A stretch of 64,000 nucleotides of DNA, taken from positions 12,358 through 76,357 of the IMG/VR virus record IMGVR_UViG_3300010885_050098, one strand, 5' to 3'. The stretch's first letter is position 1; each line of letters begins with the position of its first letter. The position numbers were made by a program, and so were the translations under genes. Below the pieces are notes generated by a model. The model saw only the letters and a program-made list of their open reading frames with translations. It did no database searches and was not told the origin of the DNA. This document shows, one piece after another, positions 3,290-32,513 of the stretch. The DNA is from a virus.

Positions 3290-3547
3290 CTAGAGAGGTT
3301 CCCCATTTTTGCACGATTCGCATGTGTACTGCTTAGATCCGCAAATTCTCATTCCGCAGTCGTAGTACCACTGACCCATATCTTCAACTTCTAGGGCTTT
3401 ACCCATGGATTGAATTAAGTTTTGAAGTTGTATGGACATACCTGAATGGATCAACTTATCTTCAGGAAGTAGGGTTTGGTAATCCTCTGAATCAAGTTTG
3501 TCGTAAGCGGCAGAAAAGATTCCAGCAATTTTGTCTAAATCAATCAT
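3290..3547 (-). CDS. hypothetical protein with C-terminal Cys cluster
   Basis: ORF; first gene of the leftward unit. Confidence 0.55.
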   Translation of the reverse strand: MIDLDKIAGIFSAAYDKLDSEDYQTLLPEDKLIHSGMSIQLQNLIQSMGKALEVEDMGQWYYDCGMRICGSKQYTCESCKNGEPL

Positions 3548-3752
3548 TAAGGGTATTCACATCTCGATAGGGGCAGAAGGTATCTGCAAGTTTACATTTC
3601 AGTTTAGGGTCACATACCTTGCAGACATTCTGCAAATCGTCACAATAGCAAGTACAGCACTCTGGATCAGTACAACAATTACAATCTGCCATGGGGAGAA
3701 CATAGCAGGCGGGCTACTGTGTGGCAAATTTCCCCATGTTAGTATTCCCCCT

Positions 3753-4637
3753 ATGAGAGAAGTACAGCCATGTGGGACCGAGGCGGGCTATAAGCGCCAT
3801 AAGTACTACAAGGAAGAAAAGTGTCAACCATGTAAGGATGCTCACAACATCTACCGCAGAGCCCACTACAACAAGGATTCAAACGCGGTAGCGGGTAGAA
3901 AATACAAGGAAAAAACAAACGCGCCTAAAAAACTAAAGAAAGCTAGAAAAGCTCTCCTTATCGATCTTTACAAGTTAATCGAAGTCAAGAGGTACAAGGA
4001 GTACCTTCAAATTAAAGAACGAGCTAAGGCTGTTGGTTATCCTCCAATTATCATCACAGATCGCGAGCCTAAAGAATCTAGAGAAGAAATTACAGAAAGA
4101 GCCAATGCTAGACGTCAAGCGCAGATTGAGCGTTCAATTGCTATCAAAACTAAACGAGCAATTGCTAGAGCAGAACAAGAAGAGATTTTAAAGCAAAAAC
4201 GTGCTGAGCGAGTTAAAAAGAAAAACCAGCATGGTGTTGCCATGGGTGACTACGATAGGTGTAGAAAATTAAACGGTATTGCGTGTGATCCGTGTAAAGC
4301 CTATGTTGCTAAATATATGCGAGAGTATGCTCGTAAGAATCCTGAGAAGACTCGTGAGTGGAGCAGGGGTCAAAACAGAAGACGTGATAAGCGAATTCAA
4401 GCAAATGGCTTTGAGTTTTACAATACTGATGATGTTCTTCGCAAATGGGGCTATGACTGCCACATCTGCAATGAGCCAATCGATTTCAAGGTTTCACGGC
4501 AATGCGGCGATCCCGGTTGGGAAAGAGGACTGCATTTGGATCACGTATTGCCAATTAGTAAAGGTGGAGCTGACGTGCTCGAGAATGTAAAACCTGCACA
4601 TGCCAAGTGCAATGTCTACAAACGCGATCTCGTGTAA
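3753..4637 (+). CDS. HNH endonuclease with two N-terminal Cys/His (CGT..Y.RH..C..C) modules
   Basis: C-terminal CHIC...LDHVLPISKGG...N...AH..CN; start at ATG 3753 supported by TAGTAT-7 nt-ATG. Confidence 0.8.
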   Translation: MREVQPCGTEAGYKRHKYYKEEKCQPCKDAHNIYRRAHYNKDSNAVAGRKYKEKTNAPKKLKKARKALLIDLYKLIEVKRYKEYLQIKERAKAVGYPPIIITDREPKESREEITERANARRQAQIERSIAIKTKRAIARAEQEEILKQKRAERVKKKNQHGVAMGDYDRCRKLNGIACDPCKAYVAKYMREYARKNPEKTREWSRGQNRRRDKRIQANGFEFYNTDDVLRKWGYDCHICNEPIDFKVSRQCGDPGWERGLHLDHVLPISKGGADVLENVKPAHAKCNVYKRDLV

Positions 4638-4752
4638 CGATGCGCGGCTACTGTATAGACCAAAAATACGTCACCAGTTTTTGATACCTGGTGCCCCCCG
4701 CTCTCGGGCGTGTCGTTTAAGGGTGGGGGGGTCTGCTGGGGGGTAGACCAGC

Positions 4753-4768
4753 TCGAACACCTGTTCGA
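4753..4768. promoter_or_regulatory. LexA SOS box (TCGAAC-N4-GTTCGA)
   Basis: TCGAACACCTGTTCGA, exact actinobacterial consensus. Confidence 0.85.
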
Positions 4769-4778
4769 ATAACTATCT

Positions 4779-4861
4779 TGCAAACTCTATTGACCCGACC
4801 CTATGCGCTCGCGTATGTTTCTCCTATCGCACACAAGTGCGAACGAACCGCAAAGGGGCTG
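4779..4861 (+). promoter_or_regulatory. cassette promoter 1: TGCAAACTCTA box, -35 TTGACC, -10 TATGTT, 5' hairpin, AAAGGGGCTG RBS
   Basis: Same architecture recurs at 5965, 6565, 7271, 8014, 8744, 9530, 10877 and 12707. Confidence 0.8.
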
Positions 4862-4864
4862 TAT

Positions 4865-5038
4865 ATGACACGCAAGGACTTCGAGTTAATCGCTCAAGTA
4901 ATCAAAGCACAACGCAAGCCACACAATGACACCGCAACACTCGACGAATTAACTCGCGAGTTTGCCTACGCACTAGCCGACACTAACCCACGCTTCGACA
5001 CTCACCGCTTCATCGAGGCTTGCAAGGTGAGCGCATGA
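4865..5038 (+). CDS. small phage protein (MTRKDFELIA...NPRFD..RF..AC)
   Basis: ATG follows the cassette RBS. Confidence 0.75.
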   Translation: MTRKDFELIAQVIKAQRKPHNDTATLDELTREFAYALADTNPRFDTHRFIEACKVSA

Positions 5039-5220
5039 AACTCAACCGACGAGGCGAGCGCGTTCTCGCGTTCTACATATTCTTCACAATGGCGCTGTTC
5101 GCTGGCGTTCTAGTAATGGGGGCAAACTTCCTACTTACTCATCACCAAGTAATCGACCAATCAACCTGCCACCAAACGGAGGACGGGTTGTCTTGCAAAT
5201 GGAATTGGGAGGCAAAATGA
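5035..5220 (+). CDS. small membrane protein
   Basis: ATGA overlap; one hydrophobic segment. Confidence 0.7.
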   Translation: MKLNRRGERVLAFYIFFTMALFAGVLVMGANFLLTHHQVIDQSTCHQTEDGLSCKWNWEAK

Positions 5221-5561
5221 CACAAGGAACCGAATTCAGAAAGGCGCAAGCCGAAGCACTAGCCAACCGCACCGCGTGTTGGATATGCAAGAACTACTTC
5301 GACCGCAAGGCAGGCGAGATGTCCTATCTCCTCGCTTATGTATTCGTCGGCAAAGTGGGAACTCTTGAACAAGAGATAACCGCTTACAACTTCGACAAGG
5401 TAGAAGACACTCGCAAGCCCGTCTTCGAGAAGCAATCTCACCTTGTCTGTAATCTGTGCGAGGAGAACCATGTTCTCGCCTACGCTGTGGAGAATATCTA
5501 CCCTAACGGCGGATACCACTCAACTCGCAAAGCAACCGACCTTCTATGGGATGAGGCGTAA
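5217..5561 (+). CDS. hypothetical protein with two CxxC motifs
   Basis: ATGA overlap, GGAGG RBS. Confidence 0.7.
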   Translation: MTQGTEFRKAQAEALANRTACWICKNYFDRKAGEMSYLLAYVFVGKVGTLEQEITAYNFDKVEDTRKPVFEKQSHLVCNLCEENHVLAYAVENIYPNGGYHSTRKATDLLWDEA

Positions 5562-5824
5562 TGAAACGCGAGGACTTAGAGAAAATGATTCACTTCATGG
5601 CTGGCGGAGTAGAAACCGCAGACGAGATCAAATTCGTAGATAAACACCTCGAAGGCTTTAACACCTTCCTACTGGATATGACTACTCACCGATTGGTTCA
5701 AGCTGGGATTGAGCTCGAGGAAGCTCAGTCCATGCTGCAAGGCCTGGTTCAAGTGAGCCGCATGCTCGGAGCTTCTCAGTTCCAAGAGTTCGTGCAGTTT
5801 CATCAAATCGTAGACCAAATATAA
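5561..5824 (+). CDS. hypothetical protein
   Basis: TAATG overlap; followed by a terminator. Confidence 0.7.
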   Translation: MKREDLEKMIHFMAGGVETADEIKFVDKHLEGFNTFLLDMTTHRLVQAGIELEEAQSMLQGLVQVSRMLGASQFQEFVQFHQIVDQI

Positions 5825-5828
5825 ATAG

Positions 5829-5866
5829 AAGGGCGTCCGCTGATCCTGGCGGGCGCTCTTTTTTTA
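5829..5866 (+). terminator. intrinsic terminator
   Basis: GGGCGTCCGC...GCGGGCGCTC stem plus T-run. Confidence 0.75.
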
Positions 5867-5885
5867 TGCGCCGCGCCGGGGCGCC

Positions 5886-5946
5886 AAATGTTTGTGTTGG
5901 AACCCGCCCTCCCTGTTCCTAATCCCTAAAGGGAAGGGGGAGAGAC
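5886..5946 (+). repeat. intergenic repeat element copy A (ATGTTTGTGTTG-CCCnCCCnCCC-hairpin-GAGAGA)
   Basis: Homologous copies at 7168, 7935, 8654, 9447 (inverted), 10784 and 12200. Confidence 0.85.
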
Positions 5947-5964
5947 GCCGGGCAGAAATTGGTC

Positions 5965-6049
5965 TGCAAACTCTATTGAATATGTCGGTGGTAGATGATT
6001 GAGTTCTCTCATGGCAAGCAACAAGGCAAGCCATTATAGATTGGGGCTG
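5965..6049 (+). promoter_or_regulatory. cassette promoter 2
   Basis: TGCAAACTCTATTGAAT ... GGGGCTG RBS. Confidence 0.75.
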
Positions 6050-6051
6050 TT

Positions 6052-6522
6052 ATGGGTCTTGATATGTATCTCCACGCTAAGAAGTATGTTAGCGGTTGGT
6101 CGCATGAGAAGGATACGAGCGAGTACCAAAGACTACGCGCTCTTTATCCTGAAGTCGAGATTGACGAGGGTTCTCCTTCGATTGAACTCGTCTTTACTGT
6201 TGGGTATTGGCGCAAGGCTAATGCCATTCATAGTTGGTTCGTTCAGAATGTCCAAGAAGGGCAAGATGATTGCAAGCCGTACTATGTTGAACCAACCGAC
6301 TTAATGAAGTTGAAGGAAGCATGCAGTTTGGAACTTCTAGTTCCTGCTGGTGGTGCTGGTGGTGGTGTTCTTGAACCTACTGCTGGTTTCTTTTTTGGTA
6401 ATGCCGAACGCGACGATTGGTATTACGAAAATCTTAATCGCACAATTCAGATTGTGGATAAGTGCCTAGCACTTCCGCAAGACGGCTGGCATTGGTCTTT
6501 CGAATATCAGTCTAGTTGGTAA
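6052..6522 (+). CDS. conserved phage hypothetical protein (MGLDMYL...YWRKANAIH...GFFFG family)
   Basis: Recognisable phage motif pattern; RBS present. Confidence 0.8.
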   Translation: MGLDMYLHAKKYVSGWSHEKDTSEYQRLRALYPEVEIDEGSPSIELVFTVGYWRKANAIHSWFVQNVQEGQDDCKPYYVEPTDLMKLKEACSLELLVPAGGAGGGVLEPTAGFFFGNAERDDWYYENLNRTIQIVDKCLALPQDGWHWSFEYQSSW

Positions 6523-6534
6523 TCCGTCGAAGGG

Positions 6535-6564
6535 AAGCGCCTCAGAAATGGGGCGCTTTTCTTT
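6535..6564 (+). terminator. intrinsic terminator
   Basis: AGCGCCTCA-GAAA-TGGGGCGCT plus T-run. Confidence 0.8.
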
Positions 6565-6646
6565 TGCAAACTCTATTGTATTTATTCAGTAGATGATTTA
6601 AGTTTCTCTTATCAGCGCAAGTCGCGTTGATATTTTCTTAGGGGGT
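6565..6646 (+). promoter_or_regulatory. cassette promoter 3
   Basis: TGCAAACTCTA-TTGTAT-17 nt-TAAGTT; hairpin ATCAGCGC/GCGTTGAT. Confidence 0.75.
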
Positions 6647-6650
6647 TAGC

Positions 6651-6902
6651 ATGGCAAACGATTTTTGGAATAAGTATTACGGCTCTTTCGTTGGAGCAAA
6701 GATTGTGAAGTTCGTTGGCATGAATACTGAGGACGATATGGGAGATGGTTTCCCTGAGTTCGAAGTCAAGTTCGCAGATGGCGAGATTGGGATTATCTCT
6801 ATCTCACAAGACCCTGAAGGTAATGGTGGCGGATTTATATTCGGCTTAGCATTACCACAAGACCACCCACAAGGTGGGGAAGTGAGGACACTCAATGCCT
6901 AG
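6651..6902 (+). CDS. hypothetical protein (QDPEGNGGG motif)
   Basis: Follows promoter and RBS. Confidence 0.75.
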   Translation: MANDFWNKYYGSFVGAKIVKFVGMNTEDDMGDGFPEFEVKFADGEIGIISISQDPEGNGGGFIFGLALPQDHPQGGEVRTLNA

Positions 6903-7083
6903 ATTAGAAATCGGTGACAAGTATGTCACTCAGAAGTCGGGTGTCGAAGGGATTATCCTTGAGATAGTCCCGAACGATACTGGATCCGTTCGCTTGCGGT
7001 TGGTAACACCTGCCCTTGAAACTCGTTGGACAACCTATGTCCCCGAGCGATTGGGACAAGTAAAGGTTTCATCAGCCCCCTGA
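6895..7083 (+). CDS. small beta-rich (SH3-like) protein; paralogue of 24859..25062
   Basis: Shared GDxYxTxxSGVxGxIxEIVPNxTG...RWTT. Confidence 0.75.
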   Translation: MPRLEIGDKYVTQKSGVEGIILEIVPNDTGSVRLRLVTPALETRWTTYVPERLGQVKVSSAP

Positions 7084-7088
7084 TTGAA

Positions 7089-7117
7089 AACTCCTGAGCA
7101 TGAGTTAAAAGTGCTCA
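7089..7117 (+). ncRNA. predicted compact H-type RNA pseudoknot
   Basis: S1 AACTC/GAGTT, S2 TGAGCAT/GTGCTCA, 1-nt L1, AAAA L3. Confidence 0.55.
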
Positions 7118-7121
7118 ACCA

Positions 7122-7168
7122 AAAAGCTCGTGGATCCTGGCACCGCGCCGGGAGCTGCGAGCTTTTTT
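7122..7168 (+). terminator. intrinsic terminator containing GGATCCTGGC
   Basis: AAAAAGCTCG...CGAGCTTTTTT. Confidence 0.7.
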
Positions 7169-7230
7169 GTTTGTGTTGAGACCCACCCTCCCTGTCTCTG
7201 ACTTACTTCGTAAGGGAGTTGTTGGAGAGA
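7168..7230 (+). repeat. intergenic repeat element copy B
   Basis: TGTTTGTGTTG-AGA-CCCACCCTCCC ... CTTAC-TTC-GTAAG ... GAGAGA. Confidence 0.85.
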
Positions 7231-7244
7231 TGCCGGGCGCAAGC

Positions 7245-7260
7245 TCGAACAGATGTTCGA
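7245..7260. promoter_or_regulatory. LexA SOS box
   Basis: TCGAACAGATGTTCGA, exact consensus; same offset to the TGCAAAC box as at 4753. Confidence 0.85.
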
Positions 7261-7270
7261 AAAAATAGTT

Positions 7271-7350
7271 TGCAAACTCTATTGAAAGTAGGAGAGCGAG
7301 CGCATAATGTTCTACCTATCAGCGCAAGGTGCGTTGATTGAAAGGGGCTG
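7271..7350 (+). promoter_or_regulatory. cassette promoter 4
   Basis: TGCAAACTCTA-TTGAAA-17 nt-TAATGT; hairpin; AAAGGGGCTG. Confidence 0.8.
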
Positions 7351-7354
7351 TAAA

Positions 7355-7810
7355 GTGCTAACGAATAAACAAGCACTTCAGGCTTATACGGAAATCGTAG
7401 AAGCCTACGCAAGCAACGAACCCTTGCCGACTACTTCGGTGAATATGTTCGTTGAAAGTATCAAAGACTTACAAGTCCGCGATTATCTCCTAGGTCATGC
7501 TCCAACGACCTTCGGTGCTCAGGGTGCGATTGAATTCGTAACCTCTATCCTTCCGCTAGTAGATGAGGGCGCTCGCGCTCCCTTCTACACTGTATTGTCT
7601 GCCTTCTATTATGAGGCTGGCGATAGCGAACTCGCGTTCGTATCATTAGTTCAAGCACAATTGCTTGACCCACAATATGCTCTAGCAAAATTGTTTGAGC
7701 GTGTTTACAAGGCTGGTTGGCCAGCCACCGCACTCGCGCAATTGCGCGTTGAACTTCACCCAAAGGTTGCAGAAACCTTTGAGGTTGAAACCGAGTTGGA
7801 GTTCGCGTAA
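7355..7810 (+). CDS. DUF4192-like helical protein
   Basis: D.QVRD...AP..T..A..Y..G...LA...L..A...DP.Y.LA.L pattern; GTG after RBS. Confidence 0.6.
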   Translation: MLTNKQALQAYTEIVEAYASNEPLPTTSVNMFVESIKDLQVRDYLLGHAPTTFGAQGAIEFVTSILPLVDEGARAPFYTVLSAFYYEAGDSELAFVSLVQAQLLDPQYALAKLFERVYKAGWPATALAQLRVELHPKVAETFEVETELEFA

Positions 7811-7821
7811 CTTCAGCCCCG

Positions 7822-7856
7822 AAGCCCCTCGGCAGAAATGCCGGGGGGCTTTTTTA
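7822..7856 (+). terminator. intrinsic terminator
   Basis: AAGCCCCTCGGCA-GAAA-TGCCGGGGGGCTT plus T-run. Confidence 0.8.
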
Positions 7857-7934
7857 ATTTCCGGATCCTGGCGCCGGCAGCTGAGATCCAGGCAGCTGTT
7901 TTTTTAGGGCGCCAAATAATATTTCCCGATGCCT

Positions 7935-7997
7935 AATGTTTGTGTTGGACAGCCCTCCCACCCTGTCTAACCCTTTCAGGGAATTAGGAGGAGAGAG
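7935..7997 (+). repeat. intergenic repeat element copy C
   Basis: AATGTTTGTGTTGG...CCCTCCCACCC...CCCT-TTC-AGGG...GAGAGA. Confidence 0.85.
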
Positions 7998-8013
7998 TTG
8001 CCCAGGAATAGTT

Positions 8014-8094
8014 CGCAAACTCTATTTACAAGTGGGTGCGCTGCGTGGGAGAGTTCATCTGTTGGAGAAGCCAAGTATCCGACAAGAAGGGCTG
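8014..8094 (+). promoter_or_regulatory. cassette promoter 5
   Basis: CGCAAACTCTATTTACA ... TGTTGGA/TCCGACA hairpin ... AAGGGCTG. Confidence 0.7.
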
Positions 8095-8099
8095 TTGAT

Positions 8100-8516
8100 A
8101 TGGCTAGGGCTATGTCTGTGAAAGTGCCAACCGCAAAAGTAATTGCCGCGTTGGAAGCAAGACTCGTAAAGACTCAAACCGAGTGGGACAATCGGGGCGA
8201 GGCTGAAGCAAAGTTCCAAGATGAACACAAGGCTTGGAGTGAAGAAATGAAGAAGTGGGCTGTTGCTCGCATCTCTAAAGCAGAGAATCTTCGTGCTAAT
8301 TATCGTTCGTGGAGTAATCAAGTCAATATCGACTTTGACCTCTCTACCAAAGATGGGGACTTCCCTATCGAGCCAAATCGCGAACACGAAAGTCGTGCGG
8401 AGTGGCAAGTCAAGGCTGAGGTTGAGGAAATCACCAACGCTCTAAATATCTTGCGTATGACTGACGAGGAATATGTAAATGCCTCGACTATGAAGTCAAT
8501 CTCGCAATATCTATAA
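8100..8516 (+). CDS. hypothetical protein
   Basis: ATG at 8100 follows the cassette RBS. Confidence 0.75.
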   Translation: MARAMSVKVPTAKVIAALEARLVKTQTEWDNRGEAEAKFQDEHKAWSEEMKKWAVARISKAENLRANYRSWSNQVNIDFDLSTKDGDFPIEPNREHESRAEWQVKAEVEEITNALNILRMTDEEYVNASTMKSISQYL

Positions 8517-8653
8517 GTAATCGAAACAGGGGCAGTTTGCGGGAGTTCTAGCCCAATGTCGTAAGTAAGAACCCGCACCTAGCAAGCGGCAGGGCCTGGG
8601 GCAACCCGGGCTCTGTCTGCCGCTGCCCAGGATCCAAGCGGCGCGGATCGCGC

Positions 8654-8709
8654 AAATGTTTGTGTTGGCCCTCCCACCCCGTTTATAGGGAGTATGTATG
8701 TAAGAGAGA
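8654..8709 (+). repeat. intergenic repeat element copy D
   Basis: AAATGTTTGTGTTGG-CCCTCCCACCCC...GAGAGA. Confidence 0.85.
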
Positions 8710-8743
8710 CTCAGCTGCCCGGTGGATCCTGGCAAAACTAGTC

Positions 8744-8810
8744 TGCAAACTCTATTTACACGAGCACGGCCAGCATGAGAGAGTTCGCCTACACCTCACG
8801 AAAGGGGCTG
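8744..8810 (+). promoter_or_regulatory. cassette promoter 6
   Basis: TGCAAACTCTATTTACA ... AAAGGGGCTG. Confidence 0.75.
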
Positions 8811-8817
8811 TTTACAT

Positions 8818-9360
8818 ATGGGTTATTACATTGACCTAACTGATGCCGATTGGGAAATTCCCGAAACCGCAGAAGTGCTAGAGGCGTTGAAAGAAATGCC
8901 TACCAAATATCACGCCATTAAACGTGGCGGTTCATCTAATGGAGAATCTTGGTTCTCATGGATGAGCGACGAAAGTATCCTCAACGCAGAGAGTGCGGAG
9001 AGAATATTCAACGACCTAGGGTTCGAGACTACGTCAACCGACGGTAGTTTTAAACTCGATGGTTACTCCAGCAAAACGGGCCAAGAAGATTTATTCTTGG
9101 CGGTCGTTGCCCCATTCTGCAAAACAGGTTCATACGTGGAATTCCGCGGTGAAGATGGAGCCGAATGGCAATACTCAGTACGTGATGGTGTCATGCAATA
9201 TTCAGAAGTTGCTCGTCACTTTCCCGAACCGCATCCGTGGCGCTACTCCCACTTCCAATTCGATGACGGTAAGACTCAGTCTTTCGCAATCGATATCACA
9301 AAACCTCTTCCAGAAGGGGTCCATAACGGCCACGATAAATACATCAAGGCCACAGTTTAA
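8818..9360 (+). CDS. conserved phage hypothetical protein (MGY...GEDG..W)
   Basis: Follows cassette RBS; ends before a terminator. Confidence 0.75.
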   Translation: MGYYIDLTDADWEIPETAEVLEALKEMPTKYHAIKRGGSSNGESWFSWMSDESILNAESAERIFNDLGFETTSTDGSFKLDGYSSKTGQEDLFLAVVAPFCKTGSYVEFRGEDGAEWQYSVRDGVMQYSEVARHFPEPHPWRYSHFQFDDGKTQSFAIDITKPLPEGVHNGHDKYIKATV

Positions 9361-9378
9361 AAGCTGAAAAAGCTGAAT

Positions 9379-9425
9379 GCTCTCACCGGGATCACCCTAG
9401 CGGATCCTGGTGGGAGCTTTTTTTA
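9379..9425 (+). terminator. intrinsic terminator containing GGATCCTGG
   Basis: GCTCTCACCGGGATC...GATCCTGGTGGGAGC plus T-run. Confidence 0.75.
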
Positions 9426-9446
9426 TTTAATAAATATCCCAAAGAG

Positions 9447-9470
9447 GGGAGGGTGGGCCGACACAAACAT
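9447..9470 (-). repeat. intergenic repeat element copy E (inverted)
   Basis: Reverse complement is ATGTTTGTGTCGGCCCACCCTCCC. Confidence 0.85.
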
Positions 9471-9529
9471 CTGGCTTTGGGTAATAAAGGCAAACGGAGC
9501 CCTCGGAGAGAGAGCGCGAAAAAATTCTT

Positions 9530-9607
9530 TGCAAACTCTATTTACACGGAGAGACTGAGCACGTAATGTTCTCCTTGTAAGCGGAAGTACCGATTACAGA
9601 AGGGCTG
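9530..9607 (+). promoter_or_regulatory. cassette promoter 7
   Basis: TGCAAACTCTA-TTTACA-17 nt-TAATGT; hairpin; AAGGGCTG. Confidence 0.8.
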
Positions 9608-9610
9608 AAA

Positions 9611-9856
9611 ATGCGTTCTCTAAGAGAGATTGCAATTGAAATTGAAAGAGAGTGTGCTGATAAGCAATGGTATTACTATGCCGAAGCCTACGTCACTCCA
9701 ATGAAGTCGCTTGAATCGCTGAGCGAGCGCTACTACGAAGATAGTGCTGAATCTATCGTCATGTATGCACTTGCTAATCTCACCTCATGGCGGGGTGATA
9801 CAGCTCGCCGAATCAAGGCCGAGCTCAACGCAATGCTGAAGGGGGTAAGCGCATGA
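9611..9856 (+). CDS. conserved small phage protein (MRSLREIA...YAEAY...Y.LANL..WRG..A.RIKAEL)
   Basis: Follows RBS. Confidence 0.75.
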   Translation: MRSLREIAIEIERECADKQWYYYAEAYVTPMKSLESLSERYYEDSAESIVMYALANLTSWRGDTARRIKAELNAMLKGVSA

Positions 9857-10227
9857 GCGAATTAACCACGCTCAGCTGCACCGAGCTTATAGCTCGTATC
9901 GAATCACTTGAGAATGGCATAACTAACTATAGTCGCCAGCTCTCACGTATTACCGAAGGCCTAACCGCCGATAGTTGGTACCGCTCTGAGGTGGAAAAAT
10001 CCACCGTGCTATCAGAGCTCTGCGAGATCCTGGGTGTTCAACCTACTCAGACCGTCTCCATCACCGCAACCCTTACGGTTTGCATGTCACACGAAGTGCC
10101 GCTCGATGAGCTGGAAGACTTCGATGCAGACCAATTGGTCTCAGACCAACTTTCTATCGATGTCTACGGTGGAGATACCACCCTCGACGATTGGTCGGTA
10201 GAGAGCGCTGATTGGGAAGAGCAATGA
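9853..10227 (+). CDS. acidic hypothetical protein
   Basis: ATGA overlap; D/E-rich C-terminal half. Confidence 0.75.
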   Translation: MSELTTLSCTELIARIESLENGITNYSRQLSRITEGLTADSWYRSEVEKSTVLSELCEILGVQPTQTVSITATLTVCMSHEVPLDELEDFDADQLVSDQLSIDVYGGDTTLDDWSVESADWEEQ

Positions 10228-10460
10228 ACGTAGCTCCATCCCAAGACCTCATGACTCGCTTCAAGGTTCAGGCGGCCATCACGGCCGCTTGGACTGAGTA
10301 TGGCGAGCTGTACGAAGCTGAAGAGGCCGGTGGCTTCTCCGACGCTATGGAATCGATGGAGAGAAAATATGCAGAAGGTGTAGCTGAAGGGCTCAGCTCT
10401 GCATACTTCATGATTTATAACGAATCGTTCCCACCATCGGAGGATGAAAGTGCCATATAA
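10224..10460 (+). CDS. acidic hypothetical protein
   Basis: ATGA overlap at 10224. Confidence 0.65.
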   Translation: MNVAPSQDLMTRFKVQAAITAAWTEYGELYEAEEAGGFSDAMESMERKYAEGVAEGLSSAYFMIYNESFPPSEDESAI

Positions 10461-10737
10461 CCCAAGAGCTGAAAGAGAAGCGGCGATCCTGGCATACACG
10501 GATGAAGACCGGGATGCGATGGACGATACCAACCCGGTTACTCATGCAGAGACTGGCCCTAACCGATTCCATCTCATGTCTCTATTCTTCTCAGATACTG
10601 ACGGTGTTCAGATTCAAGAGGATATGGAGCTCAATGAGATAACCGTTACCTACTTCAATGACGCATTAGTTAGCGAGGAGATTACGGAAGGCCCGATGTA
10701 TGACTGGGCCATCGAGCAATACAACGGCTGGATTTAA
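10444..10737 (+). CDS. acidic hypothetical protein
   Basis: Overlapping ORF followed by a terminator-like hairpin. Confidence 0.65.
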   Translation: MKVPYNPRAEREAAILAYTDEDRDAMDDTNPVTHAETGPNRFHLMSLFFSDTDGVQIQEDMELNEITVTYFNDALVSEEITEGPMYDWAIEQYNGWI

Positions 10738-10783
10738 ACGAGGCCCCTGCTGCGCTTGCGCGGTGGGGGTTTTGCCATGCCCG

Positions 10784-10840
10784 AAATGTTTGTGTTGAAG
10801 CCCACCCTCCCTCATTATGGGAAATATATATAAAGAGAGA
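10784..10840 (+). repeat. intergenic repeat element copy F
   Basis: AAATGTTTGTGTTG-AAG-CCCACCCTCCC...GAGAGA. Confidence 0.85.
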
Positions 10841-10850
10841 TCCCTGGCCG

Positions 10851-10866
10851 TGTGACGTAGCTCACA
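10851..10866. promoter_or_regulatory. CRP/GlxR box (TGTGA-N6-TCACA)
   Basis: TGTGACGTAGCTCACA, exact consensus, in the slot occupied by the SOS box elsewhere. Confidence 0.75.
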
Positions 10867-10944
10867 AGAGAGAGTCTGCAGACTCTATATACATTCGACG
10901 GTTGACGTGTCAATATACGGTTAGCAATAAAAGAAAGGGCTGTC

Positions 10945-11643
10945 ATGAAATTAAAACGTAGTAAGGACCGCAAGGTTGCGAATTCACTCACCGCGGGTGG
11001 AAACGTACGTATTGCGAATTCTTTCGGGCTACCGTCCGGGAGAGAGTACTCATGTCCGGGCGCCACTAGTATATGCGAACGCATATGTTATGCGGGCAAG
11101 CTTGAGAAGCTATATCCAGGCGTTAGAGAGAATCTCACACACAATTGGGATTTACTTAAGAATGCAGACCATGACACTATGGAGAATCTCCTAATGGAGA
11201 TGATCGAGGAATTCAAGGCCGAATGCGATAAGTGGAATGCGCCTAAGTCATTCCGTATCCATTGGGACGGGGATTTCTTTAATGGTGAGTACGCATTCGC
11301 GTGGAAACACGTCATCCTTAATAACCCGGATGTTAAATTTTGGGTATACACACGGGTAGAATCGGCCGCGTACATGCTTAAGGGCATGGAGAATCTTTCT
11401 CTCTATTTCTCCGGAGATAGCGAGAATTTCGAGGCCGCAGCACGGTTGAAAGAGCACGGGATATTAATCGCTAGTCTCGATGAGACTTTCGATCGGGCCC
11501 GTGGAGCGCTTAAACTTATTGGAGAGAAGTCTGCAATATGCCCTGAGCAACGTAAGCAAATACCTCTAAACGGAGCCTGCATTGCATGCGGGATTTGCGT
11601 AGAGGGTAAAGTCAATATATCGTTCTCGATATCTAAGAAATAA
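10945..11643 (+). CDS. Gp88-like (radical-SAM-related) phage protein
   Basis: FGLP...SCPGAT..C..ICYA, FRIH.DGDFF, FWVYTR, C-terminal CP..C..CG.C. Confidence 0.7.
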   Translation: MKLKRSKDRKVANSLTAGGNVRIANSFGLPSGREYSCPGATSICERICYAGKLEKLYPGVRENLTHNWDLLKNADHDTMENLLMEMIEEFKAECDKWNAPKSFRIHWDGDFFNGEYAFAWKHVILNNPDVKFWVYTRVESAAYMLKGMENLSLYFSGDSENFEAAARLKEHGILIASLDETFDRARGALKLIGEKSAICPEQRKQIPLNGACIACGICVEGKVNISFSISKK

Positions 11644-11652
11644 GGAGCAAGA

Positions 11653-11928
11653 ATGGGATCAACACTAGCAAGAGAGCTAGCGGGAGGAGATTTGGGCTTA
11701 GATCTACGGGCCCAGATCACCATCCAGCTACGTAGTAATCATTACCCACCGGTACCGTATGAGATGGTGGATCCATGCATGGATGCCATCGTGGCATATA
11801 ACGATGGAGACACCGATCTATTGATCGCGCTACCATCGCCGATTAAGTGGAAAGGCCAGGATCACGCACCGGCCTATGCAATAATTGAGTCGCATCACCT
11901 TAATGATTGGATCTCATATGAAGAGTAA
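11653..11928 (+). CDS. hypothetical protein (L.SNHYPPVP motif)
   Basis: AAGGAG RBS. Confidence 0.7.
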   Translation: MGSTLARELAGGDLGLDLRAQITIQLRSNHYPPVPYEMVDPCMDAIVAYNDGDTDLLIALPSPIKWKGQDHAPAYAIIESHHLNDWISYEE

Positions 11929-12010
11929 CCTGCAGATTAAGCTTGATGCGGCCGCTAAGGCCCTAGAGCCCATCCTATGGGAGACATTGGATGAGATTGA
12001 TGAAGAATGA
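11918..12010 (+). CDS. tiny acidic peptide (30 aa)
   Basis: Read manually: MKSNLQIKLDAAAKALEPILWETLDEIDEE. Confidence 0.45.
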   Translation: MKSNLQIKLDAAAKALEPILWETLDEIDEE

Positions 12011-12092
12011 ATTTCAAGAGCTGATGGATCGGGTCCTTAAGGAGGGGCTCGATCGCATCGATCAGCTAACTGAAGAAGAGTTGCTCTCCTAA
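12000..12092 (+). CDS. tiny acidic peptide (30 aa)
   Basis: Read manually: MKNEFQELMDRVLKEGLDRIDQLTEEELLS; terminator follows. Confidence 0.45.
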   Translation: MKNEFQELMDRVLKEGLDRIDQLTEEELLS

Positions 12093-12107
12093 CGGATCGA
12101 GCATCAC

Positions 12108-12151
12108 GGCGTCCATCCCCACACAGCCCGGGGTTGGGCGCCTTTTCTTTT
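12108..12151 (+). terminator. intrinsic terminator
   Basis: GGCGTCCA-TCCCC...GGGG-TTGGGCGCC plus T-run. Confidence 0.65.
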
Positions 12152-12199
12152 GGCGAGCGCCCATTTATTGTTTGGTTGTTTGCCTACACCCATATTTCC

Positions 12200-12254
12200 A
12201 AATGTTTGTGTTGACCCACCCTCCCCTTATCCCTTCGGGATAGGGTAAGAGAGA
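12200..12254 (+). repeat. intergenic repeat element copy G
   Basis: AAATGTTTGTGTTG-A-CCCACCCTCCCC...TATCCC-TTC-GGGATA...GAGAGA. Confidence 0.85.
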
Positions 12255-12276
12255 CATCGATGTCAATAGAGTCTGC

Positions 12277-12292
12277 TGTGATGGCCATCACA
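12277..12292. promoter_or_regulatory. CRP/GlxR box
   Basis: TGTGATGGCCATCACA, perfect palindrome. Confidence 0.75.
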
Positions 12293-12300
12293 TGGAGAGA

Positions 12301-12321
12301 GTTGAGTCGGATCGACTCAAG
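12301..12321. promoter_or_regulatory. HAIR-like operator (HspR site)
   Basis: GTTGAGT-N7-ACTCAAG versus consensus CTTGAGT-N7-ACTCAAG (13/14). Confidence 0.65.
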
Positions 12322-12492
12322 TTTTATGAGCCGGAATGAGCAATCTCGAAGAGAGAGAGAGGATCGAAGATCCTGGCACATTCATGCAGAGAGAGAGAGA
12401 AGAGAGAGAGGCATGCAAGCTCCGAAGGAGCTGGCTAGGCTACTGTCTCAGCATGCGAGACGATGAGCAGTCGTGCCACCAGGTCAAATGCT

Positions 12493-12508
12493 TGTTTCAC
12501 GTGAAACT
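12493..12508. promoter_or_regulatory. parS centromere site
   Basis: TGTTTCACGTGAAACT; contains the exact actinobacterial core GTTTCACGTGAAAC. Confidence 0.85.
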
Positions 12509-12679
12509 ATGCGTATATCTTCGATATTGCATATATCTTTGATCGCCATCTCAGGCTGTGGAGAGATTAAGGAAGCAGAGATAAGTAATTGGATATCTAT
12601 CTCTCTTATATCTCTCTCTTGAATATGCTCTCTCTAATTAAAACAAGGAAATGTAAAGGGCCGTATTTCCACAGGGCGC

Positions 12680-12695
12680 TGTGTTGTAAGTCACA
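12680..12695. promoter_or_regulatory. CRP/GlxR-like box (1 mismatch)
   Basis: TGTGT-TGTAAG-TCACA just upstream of TGCAAACTCAC. Confidence 0.55.
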
Positions 12696-12706
12696 TGGTA
12701 AATGTA

Positions 12707-12771
12707 TGCAAACTCACTTGCGCTAGATACTAGCTGAGGAGTAGGTTGGCCTCCTAAGCCAAACAAGGGAG
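12707..12771 (+). promoter_or_regulatory. cassette promoter 9
   Basis: TGCAAACTCAC-TTGCGC-18 nt-TAGGTT; AAGGGAG RBS. Confidence 0.65.
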
Positions 12772-12777
12772 AAAACT

Positions 12778-13199: not shown

Positions 13200-13398
13200 A
13201 TTAATAGAGGCTGTAAATAGTCCAACGTATATGAGTAGTAGAACTTTAGAGCATCCGTATATTGCACTTCGTGCAGTGTTGGAAATACACGCTCCTTTTG
13301 AAAGCGGTGTATGCGGATGTGAAATTGATAATCCAGTTCTTTCTTACATGTATCCATGTGCAACCGTTCGCGCTATTGAAAAGGAGTTGTCAATATGA
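13186..13398 (+). CDS. hypothetical protein (H.P...C..C...YPC.T.RAI motif)
   Basis: Cys/His pattern common in actinophage small proteins. Confidence 0.65.
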   Translation: MTHNELIEAVNSPTYMSSRTLEHPYIALRAVLEIHAPFESGVCGCEIDNPVLSYMYPCATVRAIEKELSI

Positions 13399-13685
13399 CA
13401 ATAAACACATATGAAAAACTAAGACCAATTGCGGATGTATGGGCGTGGCAACATAAAGGAAACTGCGTTGGTAAAAACACTGAATTGTTCTTTTTAGAAA
13501 CAAGTGTCCGAGGGCCAAATAAAACTAGACAAGAAAACGAAGCAAAGGCAATTTGTAAAGGTTGCCCAGTTAAAAATGAATGTTTAAACCACGCTTTAAC
13601 TACTCCTGAATACTACGGTGTATGGGGCGGTTTAAGCGCCGATGAACGTTCTTTTTATAGCGCAAACCGAAGGGAAATTGCATGA
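13395..13685 (+). CDS. whiB: WhiB-family transcription factor
   Basis: W...C...FF...AK.IC..CPV...CL...GVWGG. Confidence 0.93.
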   Translation: MTINTYEKLRPIADVWAWQHKGNCVGKNTELFFLETSVRGPNKTRQENEAKAICKGCPVKNECLNHALTTPEYYGVWGGLSADERSFYSANRREIA

Positions 13686-30756: not shown

Positions 30757-31067
30757 TCCAATATGGATTGGCGCAGCTCCAGAAAATCATCTTCCGTTAG
30801 CATTATGTAGTTTTCACCGTTTAGATGAAACCCGAGGACTGGGGTACGGCCATCAATAATTGCTTCAGTAACAATTTTTTCTAAAACCGCAGCCTTAACG
30901 GATACGGAAGCTTTGCCCGTCCACTTATGCTCTATGAGCAAATCTGCGGAACGAACATCGCCTTTACGACTCCAAAATGCTCCGCTGGCTGCTGTTCGTT
31001 TGCCACCGACTGCTTTTGCAAGTCTATCCTCGTGCTTCCTTGACTCCTTTTGTCCTTTACTCTTCAT
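30729..31067 (-). CDS. Hjc-like PD-(D/E)xK resolvase
   Basis: E...A...SGA...KGDV...IEHK. Confidence 0.7.
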   Translation of the reverse strand: MKSKGQKESRKHEDRLAKAVGGKRTAASGAFWSRKGDVRSADLLIEHKWTGKASVSVKAAVLEKIVTEAIIDGRTPVLGFHLNGENYIMLTEDDFLELRQSILECSCTKTKV

Positions 31068-32142
31068 CTTCGTCTGCGACTACTACGTACTTAGACCCAG
31101 CTCGGACTACTTCAAGAACATCCTTCTCCAGTGTTTCACGGAGGTCGATCTCCTCCTTGATGGAACTAACCATAGCATCAGATCCTTGCCACTGCCTTTG
31201 CTCACCATTGAAGGTGTAGCGGTAGTAAGCACCAGCTCGTGTAATAACCTTATTAATAATGCCCATAGCCACAATTTCTTTGGCAAAATCGTATTCGCCA
31301 GCAGGAACAGTTCCGCCATCGGCAAAATAAAAGTCCATAAAAGCAACCTGTGATGGAGGGGCTGATTTATTCTTTAAAGTTCTAGCCTTAATAGTTTGAC
31401 CTACACGGCGCTTAGAATCTCCTGTACCAACCTCAATCCACTCGTCGCGCTTAACTTCAACGCGGGTAAAGTAACTGTAGTTCTTTCCCTTACCGCCTGG
31501 GGTAGTGCGTGGATCTCCATACATAACTCCAACACGATCACGCCATTGATTAATCATAATTCCAATAAATGGACGTTCTTCTTCTGTAAGACTGCGCTTT
31601 GATGATTTGCCAACCTTACGAAAAAATTTATTGGTTAAGAGCGCCCCTCGTCCAACGGTGAATTCATCCATTTCTTTTTGATCTTCCGCGCTAGGAACGA
31701 GAGCAGGAAGGGAGTCGATAACAATACAATCAACAGACTTGCTTTCGATGAGTTGAATAACCGCTTCATAAACTTCCTCCATGATATTTGATTCAATGAC
31801 AAACAGGCGGGATACGTCTACCCCACATAATTCAGCGTATGTAGGAACCCATTGCTCTGCAGCAACCCATACCGTTGTAAATTCAGGGTTCTTCTTTTGA
31901 TTTGCTGCAATTGTTTTAAATGCAAGTGCAGTCTTACCGTTAGATTCTTCTCCAACAATTTCATGCCATTGATTAATTGGCCAGCCACCACCAAGTGCAA
32001 CGTCAAGTGAAAGTGAACCCGTGGGGAATCGTTCTGACAAGTCTCTAATATCTGATCCAAGAACAATAGTGTCTTGACCAAACTTCTTATTTAGTTTTGC
32101 AATTACTCGTAATACTTCCGTGTTATGCGCCATTGTTTTCAT
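31057..32142 (-). CDS. recA: RecA-like recombinase
   Basis: PTGSLSLDVALGGG, GEESNGKT, IVIDS, INQ.R, TPGG. Confidence 0.93.
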   Translation of the reverse strand: MKTMAHNTEVLRVIAKLNKKFGQDTIVLGSDIRDLSERFPTGSLSLDVALGGGWPINQWHEIVGEESNGKTALAFKTIAANQKKNPEFTTVWVAAEQWVPTYAELCGVDVSRLFVIESNIMEEVYEAVIQLIESKSVDCIVIDSLPALVPSAEDQKEMDEFTVGRGALLTNKFFRKVGKSSKRSLTEEERPFIGIMINQWRDRVGVMYGDPRTTPGGKGKNYSYFTRVEVKRDEWIEVGTGDSKRRVGQTIKARTLKNKSAPPSQVAFMDFYFADGGTVPAGEYDFAKEIVAMGIINKVITRAGAYYRYTFNGEQRQWQGSDAMVSSIKEEIDLRETLEKDVLEVVRAGSKYVVVADEDEE

Positions 32143-32513
32143 TATCCCAATTTCCCGATGATTGTTGTTGGATTCCATCCGCCTGTTGCTACTTGCACTG
32201 CTGGTACAGCAGGTCCTGAAGCCTGTGGGCCACCAGTAATTCCTTTACCTAAACCACTACCGCTTTGAACAATTGGATAACCGCAATCATAACAACGCGC
32301 TTTAGTTCCTTCAATTGATCCGTAGTTTCCACTTCCGCAACCGGGGCATCTTGATGCATTTGCTGATGCTGTTGGGCGAGCGCCTTGTTGTGGTTGAGAC
32401 GGTGGTGTGTACGCCATTGGGATCTGCGACGGAGGTAAAGGCATCTCTTGTCTTGGTTGCGGTGACTGTGGTGCCTGTCCTGCAAGTTTATTTGCCCACC
32501 AATTAGTGCTCAC
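32142..32513 (-). CDS. Pro/Gln-rich protein with zinc ribbon
   Basis: CPGCGS...CYDCGYP. Confidence 0.6.
   Translation of the reverse strand: MSTNWWANKLAGQAPQSPQPRQEMPLPPSQIPMAYTPPSQPQQGARPTASANASRCPGCGSGNYGSIEGTKARCYDCGYPIVQSGSGLGKGITGGPQASGPAVPAVQVATGGWNPTTIIGKLG

Follow-up and report, generated by a model that had tools for sequence, protein, structure and literature searches.

Promoter-terminator cassettes that mediate gene shuffling are already known as PeSLs (promoter-early stem-loop regulatory cassettes) of T4-like phages, where they have been proposed to act both in expression control and as portable homology (Arbiol et al. 2010, PMC2839356; Comeau et al. 2014, PMC4122927). The locus described here resembles them in its repeated, predicted host-sigma-type early promoters and stem-loop terminators, in the concentration of these parts in a hyper-variable region beside ORFans, and in motifs that bound insertions, deletions and replacements between relatives. 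It differs in phage lineage and host phylum, in the distance of 100-250 nt between promoter and terminator with an element (E) and a host-regulator slot in between, in a promoter box that is lineage-specific whereas E is family-wide, and in a much shorter spacer identity within one genome. A preceding sequence-only reading of this DNA had not recognised the multi-part spacer; its promoter-terminator shuffling cassettes correspond to the known PeSLs, and what is new here is the 60-base folded spacer element E, previously undescribed.

In the SPO1 host-takeover module and the T5 pre-early region, numerous small early genes are grouped into several short operons, and strong early promoters and terminators recur. 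The present locus likewise has clustered, putatively early small genes in short operons with repeated promoters and terminators, and to our knowledge neither a shared structured spacer element nor an interchangeable host-operator slot has been described for SPO1 or T5. The units also recall lambdoid morons (Hendrix), being composed of promoter, gene and terminator, each looking independently transcribable with a terminator at its end; morons are, however, single scattered insertions with unrelated control sequences, whereas nine units stand here in a row and reuse the same parts.

Anatomy of the cassette array

The source phage is a ~95-kb myovirus of freshwater actinobacteria, and the window, i.e. 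the whole stretch analysed, covers 64,000 nt of IMG/VR record IMGVR_UViG_3300010885_050098 (positions 12,358 to 76,357). The array at 4.7-12.8 kb of the window, described earlier as about nine small self-contained gene units reusing promoters, terminators and a spacer element, was confirmed as a real observation, the parts lying 1-3 nt from the positions first given (Table 1). It comprises eight gene units and nine promoters, all in the same register, and its anatomy together with the statistics of the parts bears out that the units are separate promoter-cargo-terminator cassettes with common parts.

The box GCAAACTCTATT has seven exact matches, all on the + strand between 4780 and 9542, and none elsewhere in the 76-kb genome; at up to two mismatches there are 21 matches vs 8.0 expected, a number reached in 0 of 100 shuffles. 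All nine promoters share the register of box, -35 (TTGACC, TTGAAA or TTTACA), 17-18 nt spacer, TAnnnT-like -10 and TCTC, and are predicted to be of host-sigma type with a genome-specific 12-nt box. Each phage lineage has its own repeated box. Searches for an integrase, a Y1 transposase or a sigma factor found none. Strong hairpins lie 3' of all eight units, the 125-nt post-stop segments folding to -39 to -55 kcal/mol, with T-runs at 7/8 of them, the exception being c5. The motif GATCCWGG is frequent (13 matches vs 2.3 expected, 11 of them within 5842-12376), whereas AAGGGGCTG, counted earlier among the recurring parts, is exact in 3 places only and alone no more common than chance (14 vs 11.5 expected at one mismatch or fewer).

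Different spacers carry different operators. Nanopelagicaceae genomes are enriched in the LexA-type palindrome (36 of 41 genomes, ~60 sites vs 11 control sites), which lies there upstream of a DUF6504-dnaE2-like operon, and the LexA-type box is a real host motif. CRP/GlxR-type sites come after 56 of 115 E copies in the phage family.

Table 1. Features of the array and its surroundings, in window positions
Feature	Position	Strand	Remarks
HNH endonuclease gene	3531..4637	+	left border of array; Pfam HNH 4e-8
Inverted C-tract motif CCCCCCCACCC	4721..4731	-	without 11-mer; upstream of first promoter
LexA-type SOS box TCGAACACCTGTTCGA	4753..4768	.	5' of P1; regex
P1	4780..4819	+	box GCAAACTCTA, -35 TTGACC, 18-nt spacer, -10 TATGTT
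Cargo unit 1, c1a-c1d	4865..5824	+	four small ORFs; no Pfam family
Terminator hairpin	5827..5884	+	T7 run, then short GC hairpin
E copy 1	5889..5946	+	arm GGAAC/GTTCC, loop CCGCCCTCCCT, hairpin CCCTAAAGGG, then GAGAGA
P2	5966..6005	+	promoter register
Cargo c2	6052..6522	+	most widespread cargo family among relatives
Terminator T2	6533..6564	+	adjoins P3; spacer without E
P3	6566..6605	+	promoter register; no E in preceding spacer
Cargo c3a, c3b	6651..7083	+	
Terminator T3	7121..7167	+	contains GGATCCTGG; T-run merges into 11-mer of E
E copy 2	7168..7231	+	arm GAGAC/GTCTC; variant also present in at least 6 other contigs, with other genes on either side
LexA-type box TCGAACAGATGTTCGA	7245..7260	.	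between E copy 2 and P4
P4	7272..7311	+	promoter register
Cargo c4	7355..7810	+	DUF4192 C-terminal part
Terminator hairpins T4a, T4b	7821..7907	+	
E copy 3	7937..7997	+	arm GGACAG/CTGTCT, closing pair G-T
P5	8015..8054	+	promoter register
Cargo c5	8100..8516	+	
Hairpins after c5	8530..8653	+	no T-run; high-depth hairpin 8522-8572 among them
E copy 4	8657..8710	+	short form without arm
P6	8745..8784	+	promoter register
Cargo c6	8818..9360	+	phrog_38862, unknown function
Terminator T6	9379..9425	+	stem with GGATCCTGG; T7 run
Inverted E core, TGTTTGTGTCG G CCCACCCTCCC	9447..9470	-	one mismatch
P7	9531..9570	+	promoter register
Cargo c7a-c7d	9611..10737	+	
Terminator T7	10739..10774	+	
E copy 6	10787..10841	+	
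CRP/GlxR-type site TGTGACGTAGCTCACA	10851..10866	.	between E copy 6 and P8
P8	10878..10917	+	variant box GCAGACTCTATA, two mismatches
Cargo c8a, c8b, two 30-aa ORFs	10945..12092	+	c8a: GP88 family, PF17338
Terminator T8	12125..12160	+	
E copy 7	12203..12255	+	short form; hairpin CCTTATCCC/GGGATAGGG; right border of array; commonest variant in phage family
Inverted promoter box GCAGACTCTATT	12265..12276	-	one mismatch; faces back into array
CRP-type site TGTGATGGCCATCACA	12277..12292	.	beside inverted promoter box
P9	12708..12747	+	variant box GCAAACTCACTT, two mismatches; serves next block (WhiB, DNA methylases)
UvsX/RecA-like recombinase gene	31057..32178	-	phrog_97, 6e-56; candidate engine of exchange

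Folding, spread and polarity of element E

E recurs in the spacers as six direct copies and one inverted copy, and is a sharply bounded element of 55-65 nt, in which TGTTTGTGTTG is followed by a covarying stem with the C-tract loop CCCNCCCNCCC, then by another hairpin and GAGAGAG, its 11-mer being invariant. In each direct copy of Table 1 TGTTTGTGTTG is followed by CCCNCCCNCCC, and the latter has 8 matches, all within 4721-12225, vs 0.19 expected. The copies within the source genome all differ. E folds: across 51 copies its stem 1 has 29 different arms, and 180 of 194 pairs are Watson-Crick vs 121 in a dealt control. In a 15-row alignment 98.7% of the stem 1 cells were paired, both sides had changed in 21 cells, and the covariation score was 0.758 vs 0.241 when shuffled (0/500 reach 0.758) and at most 0.185 in slid controls; the sense strand of this alignment has three G-U pairs and zero A-C pairs. 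The second hairpin has 30 G-T vs 15 A-C pairs. A conserved linear box followed by a hairpin with variable stem and conserved loop resembles lambda nut and HK022 put, but E lies past terminators and ahead of promoters, not in a transcript leader, and in the genomes searched its 11-mer does not count among the host rrn-leader words. E stands outside the predicted transcripts, and an RNA role would need read-through.

The element is not private to the source phage and is spread family-wide, having been found in 60 IMG/VR stretches (115 distinct class-1 copies, 38 contigs), the contigs being mostly myoviruses of 70-98 kb that encode WhiB. No Rfam family corresponds to it, and cultured phages lack it. 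Nor is it a motif of host genomes: in 185,579 species genomes just 3 short metagenome-bin contigs contain it, and in 60 Nanopelagicaceae genomes the 11-mer is about as frequent as expected by chance. E is placed a median of 99 nt past the previous co-directional ORF and 181 nt ahead of the next, and in 91 of 117 copies the end of a strong hairpin lies no more than 8 nt upstream of it.

E is also strand-polar. Outside the array the 11-mer is over-represented (3 extra copies vs 0.056 expected, on the strand antisense to late genes), an excess that is not predicted by a promoter/terminator model alone. In eight genomes such extra copies point the same way as the array by 22 to 1, whatever the local gene direction; many are located in coding regions, and codon choice there prefers the same strand ~3 to 1. 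In relatives some E-related forms are palindromic, with the terminal inverse CCAACACAAACA.

Reassortment among relatives

Cargo, promoters and E variants are reassorted among relatives. The cargo families are common to them, but their order and operon combinations differ, and identical E variants are placed between different genes in different phages. These variants are 92-100% identical across lineages while their flanks are at background identity: among 205 same-variant pairs from different contigs both 60-nt flanks were at background in 159, in which similarity stops exactly at the two ends of E, the upstream flank alone was shared in 15 and the downstream alone in 4. Such near-identity could reflect selection rather than exchange. 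As the relatives have a scrambled rather than a fixed order, with similarity stopping at the E ends, the earlier proposal of gene shuffling via the spacers withstands the comparison. The companion proposal, that spacers are recombination points, is not supported for exchange within one genome, as the spacers there have only 14-17 identical bases in common, a poor substrate for RecA-type exchange between the phage's own cassettes. Breaks of adjacency also fall inside operons, c1a-c1d, c4-c5 and c1d-c2 being adjacent without a spacer in relatives.

Interpretation of the array

Our verdict is that the locus is a PeSL-like early hyperplastic region of a new phage family and includes one new, structured boundary element (E), which is strand-polar and of unproven function; the overall interpretation of the sequence-only reading is thereby partly supported. 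The best explanation, to which we assign a probability of about 0.5 as a whole, would be a PeSL-like cassette array in which E is polar boundary and portable homology at once, the stretch being an early, hyper-variable arm in which autonomous, moron-like transcription units stand in a row. A unit consists of a predicted host-sigma-type promoter with its 12-nt box and optional LexA-type or CRP-type sites, then a 5' stem-loop and strong ribosome-binding site ahead of 1-4 small ORFs, and ends in a hairpin terminator; E, common to the whole phage family, lies between the terminator and the next promoter. The system may work as the PeSL cassettes do in T4-like phages: each newcomer gene would receive insulated, host-wired early expression from the spacers, and E would stop or mark rightward traffic as a polar boundary. 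Near-identical between co-infecting relatives but varying among the spacers of a single genome, E could furnish portable homology, at which general recombination by the UvsX-like recombinase and exonuclease might swap neighbouring cargo between phages with no deletion of cassettes within one genome. The phage RecA invoked earlier does exist as a UvsX/RecA-like recombinase gene, beside which the phage carries an exonuclease gene.

A lesser and on the whole unlikely possibility is that E is only a transcription-boundary signal, such as a fail-safe factor-dependent terminator or insulator, a sense-strand 3'-end element or a polar roadblock on the DNA to RNA polymerase moving rightward, and that the shuffling is ordinary phage mosaicism not using E. 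This would suit the constant location of E directly past terminators and co-oriented with early genes, the sense-strand G-U without A-C pairs of its stem and the G-T bias of its second hairpin, the solo 11-mers on the same strand, which would meet antisense (rightward) transcription only, and the breakpoints inside operons. It leaves unexplained the 92-100% identical variants with background flanks between different genes as well as the palindromic forms, and neither a termination factor nor an E-binding protein could be found.

The strictly constant position and orientation of E, the dissimilarity of its copies within the source genome and an 11-mer and loop invariant across a diverged family, which point to function, make it doubtful that E is a selfish miniature mobile element inserting between terminators and promoters with the cassette look as a by-product. 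MITEs and REP/REPINs are likewise short structured intergenic repeats after genes, and the ends of E, at TGTTTGTGTTG and GAGAGAG, are sharp and adjoin unrelated flanks; one variant occupies several sites within a single genome (four copies in the L008/L036 contig), and related forms end in inverse CCAACACAAACA like terminal inverted repeats. However, five genomes (four complete) contained no tyrosine recombinase or other integrase-family gene and no RAYT/Y1 transposase, and an HNH gene was present in just one of the five.

It is also quite improbable that E works at the DNA level as a polar signal akin to Chi or a nick site, which a nuclease or recombinase would recognise on one strand to yield recombinogenic ends at cassette borders. 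As with Chi and KOPS, the 11-mer is over-represented and nearly always on one strand genome-wide, the hairpin tolerates G-T pairs on that same strand, mosaic junctions lie at the E ends, and exonuclease and UvsX-like genes are at hand. Unlike a host Chi, the word is attached to a hairpin module and is not enriched in candidate host genomes; the coding location of many extra copies, with their ~3 to 1 codon preference, and the non-polar palindromic forms of relatives also speak against such a signal. An integron-like array recombining at a folded single-stranded site, suggested by small unrelated genes in a row split by an attC-like folded element with conserved ends and variable middle, is already close to refuted, as 0/5 genomes have an integrase-family gene, each cassette has its own promoter, E lacks the GTTRRRY attC core, and its variants are decoupled from both neighbours instead of travelling with one gene.

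Cargo and neighbouring genes

The window cargo, putatively 'early' and 'anti-host', consists mostly of virus-only ORFans; an ArdC-like anti-restriction gene occurs only in the arrays of relatives. The HNH gene bordering the array on the left occurs only sporadically in the family, with a homologue in only one of five complete relatives. In a near strain a further rearrangement inside an operon, an 82-nt deletion at a 7-nt microhomology, removed one small ORF.

Architecture of the array

The genes between 4.7 and 12.8 kb of the window were all found to run rightward, in DNA with a G+C content of about 0.48 as compared with about 0.42 elsewhere. The promoter box GCAAACTCTATT was present in seven exact copies, all on the + strand from 4780 to 9542 and none elsewhere in the genome, and variant and inverted boxes were also located (see the table). 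Nine promoters (P1-P9) followed a common register of box, -35 (e.g. TTGACC, TTGAAA, TTTACA), spacer of 17-18 nt, TAnnnT-like -10 and TCTC, with a stem-loop and a G-rich ribosome-binding site 3' of these elements. The nine sites are predicted to be copies of a repeated sigma-70-like early promoter motif with a common 12-nt box. Strong hairpins followed all eight gene units (c1-c8), with T-runs in seven, and a distance of 100-250 nt, which takes in operator sites and the spacer element E (about 55-65 nt), separated these terminator hairpins (T1-T8) from the promoter that follows; T2 alone adjoined a promoter. A consensus promoter and terminator scan, which is insensitive here, recovered one of the nine promoters (P1) and few terminators. 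The array of promoters, hairpins and operator-type sites described in the sequence-only reading was thus confirmed with small corrections, such as the exact word AAGGGGCTG, which occurs only three times and by itself not above chance.

Full E copies and all promoter boxes were confined to 4.7-12.8 kb, beside cargo that is mostly without a family. The Atlas look-alikes of c2 and c6 were virus-only hypothetical proteins. The arrays of relatives carried ArdC-like, MoxR/VWA and DUF932 cargo, families that are typical of plasmid leading regions. RNA contigs from two metatranscriptomes covered parts of c2, c3, c4, c5, c6, c7 and c8 and left the spacers uncovered, and DNA contigs of near strains ended in spacers; neither kind of contig can show starts, ends or absence.

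Features located in the window and in related contigs
Feature	Position	Strand	Context
Variant promoter boxes	10878, 12708		
Inverted promoter box	12265		
Perfect TCGAAC-N4-GTTCGA boxes	4753, 7245		just upstream of promoter boxes
Perfect TGTGA-N6-TCACA boxes	10851, 12277		just upstream of promoter boxes
WhiB-like regulator	13395-13685		
Solo copies of the 11-mer TGTTTGTGTTG	49056, 55231, 60265	+	within leftward-transcribed block
Long-hairpin form at the place of E	L015, L017, L025, L045, L053, L060 (e.g. L015:6793-6883)		more distant relatives
ArdC-like anti-restriction protein (ArdcN + zincin peptidase), MoxR-type AAA ATPase with VWA partner, DUF932	L064:3589-4539, L025:3176-4696, L042:6835-8754, L030:11840-12871		cargo of relatives' arrays

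Fold and distribution of element E

The sequence-only reading had listed ATGTTTGTGTTG-CCCnCCCnCCC, a short hairpin and GAGAGA as separate parts of the spacers. These parts are real, and together they form one module, E. Through an exact-pattern scan of IMG/VR, which returned 60 stretches, we obtained after de-duplication 115 distinct copies in 38 contigs, with up to eight per contig. The copies were placed at a median of 99 nt after the preceding co-directional ORF and 181 nt before the following one, a strong hairpin ended within 8 nt upstream in 91 of 117 copies, and GAGAG followed the C-tract motif by 15-35 nt in most of them.

Among 51 copies, stem 1, formed by the bases that lead from the 11-mer to the C-tracts and the bases after these, had 29 different arms; 180 of its 194 pairs were Watson-Crick, as compared with 121 when the arms were dealt among copies. 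In a gap-free alignment of 15 rows, 98.7% of cells were paired and the three stem positions varying on both sides were all compensatory (21 cells). The covariation score was 0.758 against 0.241 in shuffles (none of 500 reached 0.758) and at most 0.185 with a slid partner. Read on the sense strand, the same alignment contained three G-U pairs and none of the A-C type; in the second hairpin, 30 G-T pairs stood against 15 A-C pairs. This compensatory pairing, together with the G-U/G-T excess, indicates single-strand folding of E, most likely in the sense strand. Both the 11-mer and its loop partner CCCNCCCNCCC (N never C) were invariant and unpaired. RNAalifold found no structure in 48 copies aligned with MAFFT, since the arms lose their register in that alignment, and it was replaced by the anchored pair counts.

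Rfam covariance models recognized nothing on E, their sole matches being terminator look-alikes below threshold. The annotated phage collection gave chance matches only, with no counterpart in cultured phages, and a literature search for the 11-mer returned only unrelated primers. Among 185,579 species genomes E was absent apart from three short metagenome-bin contigs. A G-quadruplex or i-motif was rejected as the essence of E since a fourth C-tract within 12 nt was present in only 52 of the 115 copies.

In more distant relatives the position of E, from terminator to operators, is occupied by two further forms. One is a branched form of about 110 nt closed by the inverse CCAACACAAACA, and the other is a long hairpin with a perfect outer stem of 20-25 bp made of the 11-mer and its complement (TGTTTGTGTTGGG, CCCAACACAAACA), often flanked by DnaA boxes (TTATCCACA); comparison of sense and antisense pairing is uninformative for such long palindromic forms. 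E is family-wide and the promoter box is lineage-specific, each lineage having its own repeated word (e.g. CAAAGCCTATT, GGGTGTAGGTCT, GGGTGGCAGGTTT, GGCGTGTCG). The slot from E to the promoter differs in content between spacers and between phages, and after the 115 copies it held CRP-like sites in 56, CGACACGCC words in 27, GTTAT repeats in 18, DnaA boxes in 9 and LexA-like sites in 5.

Phage, relatives and host

The IMG/VR record, of which the window is bases 12358-76357, is 76 kb long and estimated to be 79% complete, its DNA is present in freshwater metagenomes, and complete relatives measure 96-98 kb with direct terminal repeats. Public freshwater runs contained near-identical strains, with word shares of 0.5-0.97. 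The annotated phage collection contained no close relative of the region. On the strand opposite to the array are encoded tail sheath, baseplate, DNA polymerase, helicases, ribonucleotide reductase, exonuclease and a UvsX/RecA-like recombinase. The WhiB-like regulator and the GP88 and DUF4192 cargo families indicate an actinobacterial host, and we infer the family Nanopelagicaceae. A weak hint in the same direction comes from a 'Candidatus Nanopelagicaceae' bin with seven copies of the 11-mer on one 7.3 kb phage-like contig that carries E (L068, G001 contig 44) and none in the other 1.3 Mb; the contig is a phage fragment within the bin.

The LexA-type palindrome was present in 36 of 41 Nanopelagicaceae genomes, at about 60 sites as compared with 11 for the control. 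The best conserved copy (TCGAACATATGTTCGA, L097:1501-1516) immediately precedes a DUF6504 gene and, behind it, a PHP/DNA_pol3_alpha (DnaE2-like) gene. Such an operon is a classic SOS unit, and the palindrome is positioned as expected for an SOS box. 'Host operator', as the spacer sites had been called from the sequence, is therefore a fair reading for the predicted LexA-type site.

Reassortment among relatives

The cargo families of the window recur in relatives at 30-82% amino-acid identity, in different orders and operon combinations. Unit c4 follows c3 in the window and c1 or c2 in three other lineages, and c1d, an ORF of unit 1, is elsewhere joined to c5, c2 or c4. The E copies formed 44 variant clusters, of which 16 had multiple members, and the same variant (median 92% identity in the variable part) was found between different genes. 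A GAGAC-armed variant, for instance, separates c3b from c4 in the window, c4 from c5 in two contigs and f45 from f12 in one further contig, and precedes c8a in another.

We compared the 60-nt flanks of 205 same-variant E pairs from different contigs. Both flanks were at background identity in 159 pairs (0.57 against 0.53 for random pairs), 27 pairs were simply near-identical genomes, and only the upstream flank was common in 15 and only the downstream flank in 4. E is therefore a sharply bounded island that starts with TGTTTGTGTTG and ends with GAGAGAG. Stem sequences vary freely from one variant to another but stay fixed within a variant even in diverged lineages, which recent phage-to-phage exchange would explain better than vertical descent alone.

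The proposal that cargo is shuffled at the spacers held in part. Relatives with identical order and no breakpoints in the spacers were not what we found, and the comparison speaks for an association of mosaic junctions with spacers, but not for an exclusive one, as gene adjacency is broken inside operons too. None of the relatives is close enough for base-level mapping of junctions. Spacers of the window's own genome have only 14-17 identical bases in common.

In a near-strain contig (run X4), 82 nt are skipped (11917-12000), and with them the 30-aa ORF c8c, which lies between ATGAAGA repeats at two start codons. This loss appears to have proceeded by 7-nt microhomology inside the operon, with caution since it is seen in a single contig aligned at 90% likeness.

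Copies of the 11-mer outside the array

Outside the array the 11-mer occurs in three exact copies against 0.056 expected, and this excess is strong in itself. The solo copies are always on the array strand, opposite to the genes there. Across eight genomes, 22 extra copies were co-oriented and 1 opposite, a polarity only modestly significant (about p = 0.01 by our own estimate) because codon composition favours the same strand by about 3 to 1. The one-strand excess fits a polar transcription boundary or another signal acting on whatever travels rightward, and it fits equally a Chi-type or nick-site signal that is recognized on a single DNA strand. A Chi-type word of the host is disfavoured: Chi and KOPS words resemble the 11-mer in being over-represented with strand polarity across the genome but are enriched in the host chromosome, whereas the 11-mer had 39 matches (20 for the control, about 36 by chance) in 60 genomes of Nanopelagicaceae, the probable host family. 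E as a mimic of the host rrn boxA or another host site was rejected on the same chance-level count and because the seven copies in the E-bearing bin are confined to its one phage-like contig.

One solo copy precedes by 1 nt the ribosome-binding site of a gene with its start at 55217(-), and one is inside a glycosyltransferase-like gene and conserved in the relative L085.

Proposed mechanism and known cassette systems

Host-takeover and anti-defence genes of phages are kept in early hyper-variable regions. To our knowledge, little is understood, except in T4-like phages, of how such genes are acquired and connected to regulation. The present array combines autonomous-looking units, a folded family-wide boundary element and host-type operator sites with reassortment of cargo, promoters and E. 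We give roughly even odds (about 0.5) to a joint reading in which the array would be an early hyperplastic region, each promoter would be fired by the host RNA polymerase, and terminators and E would maintain the independence of the units. Nearly the same in co-infecting relatives but different from spacer to spacer within one genome, E would serve as portable homology for the general recombination system of the phage, which would exchange neighbouring cargo from genome to genome while avoiding deletions within a genome. No phage sigma factor was found in five genomes.

By analogy, this mechanism would follow the logic of portable homology and expression control proposed for PeSLs, the promoter-early stem-loop cassettes of T4-like phages (PMC2839356, PMC4122927). 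PeSLs likewise have a repeated sigma-70-like early promoter motif, as predicted here, concentrated in a hyper-variable region beside ORFans. The array is set apart from them by its phage lineage, by terminators and promoters that do not generally form the compact motif of a PeSL, and by the added structured element E and operator slot. Indels and replacements between relatives are bounded by the motifs in PeSLs, and mini-circles arise there when neighbouring motifs recombine. In the array the order is scrambled and E is decoupled from its neighbours, but junctions also fall inside operons.

We consider it unlikely that E is instead a new kind of cassette boundary, strand-polar and folding as a single strand, which would mark the 3' end of early cassettes and direct recombination without an integrase; that its signal would be the invariant 11-mer and C-tract loop on a stem free to vary is similarly doubtful. 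If true, E would define an integrase-free counterpart of the integron in abundant freshwater phages, each cassette with its own host-wired promoter. Integrons have an integrase next to the array, whereas the tyrosine recombinase/integrase family PF00589 had no match in five phage genomes (four complete) with positive controls; their cassettes are promoterless and end in attC, whereas the units here each have a promoter and the attC core is absent from E. REP/REPIN and IS200/IS605-type elements have a cognate Y1 transposase, and the Y1 (HUH) family PF01797 had no match in the same five genomes. The nut/put sites are located in the transcript leader, downstream of the promoter and upstream of terminators, whereas E comes after terminators and before the promoter. 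The HNH gene at the left border of the array was rejected as a partner of E, being sporadic (one of five complete genomes).

The array represents a second, independent promoter-terminator cassette system, in uncultured phages, probably of the most abundant freshwater actinobacteria. It is cleanly layered into a family-wide structured boundary element, lineage-specific promoter boxes and a slot of host-regulator-type sites (LexA-type, CRP-type, DnaA boxes). With its many distinct copies, covarying stem and invariant single-stranded parts, E is a ready candidate for a new cis-acting signal and a practical marker for locating early regions and the borders of cassettes in phage contigs from metagenomes.

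Associated features of the window

The word GATCCWGG, in which GATC and CCWGG overlap, is about five-fold over-represented, with 13 occurrences where 2.3 are expected. Eleven copies are in the array (5842-12376), mostly in terminator stems and loops, and the word recurs in spacers of relatives. The phage encodes C5 DNA methylase genes at 13682-15059.

The last E is followed by a gene-poor stretch of 450 bp (12256-12707) with GA/TC runs, the inverted promoter box, a perfect CRP-type site and a parS-like palindrome GTTTCACGTGAAAC at 12494-12507. A hairpin in the c5 3' untranslated region (8522-8572; TGCGGGAGTTCT ... AGAACCCGCA, 18-nt loop) had no copy among the fetched relatives and no Rfam match. 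In each of two DNA runs and two RNA runs it was covered 10-60 times as deeply as its flanks, with loose ends to either side, and it must therefore be common to other abundant genomes.

A queuine tRNA-ribosyltransferase homologue (phrog_887) at 18263-19723 (-) suggests 7-deazaguanine modification of the phage DNA. Three TGT triplets are present within the 11-mer, and TGT is the motif read by tRNA enzymes of this family.
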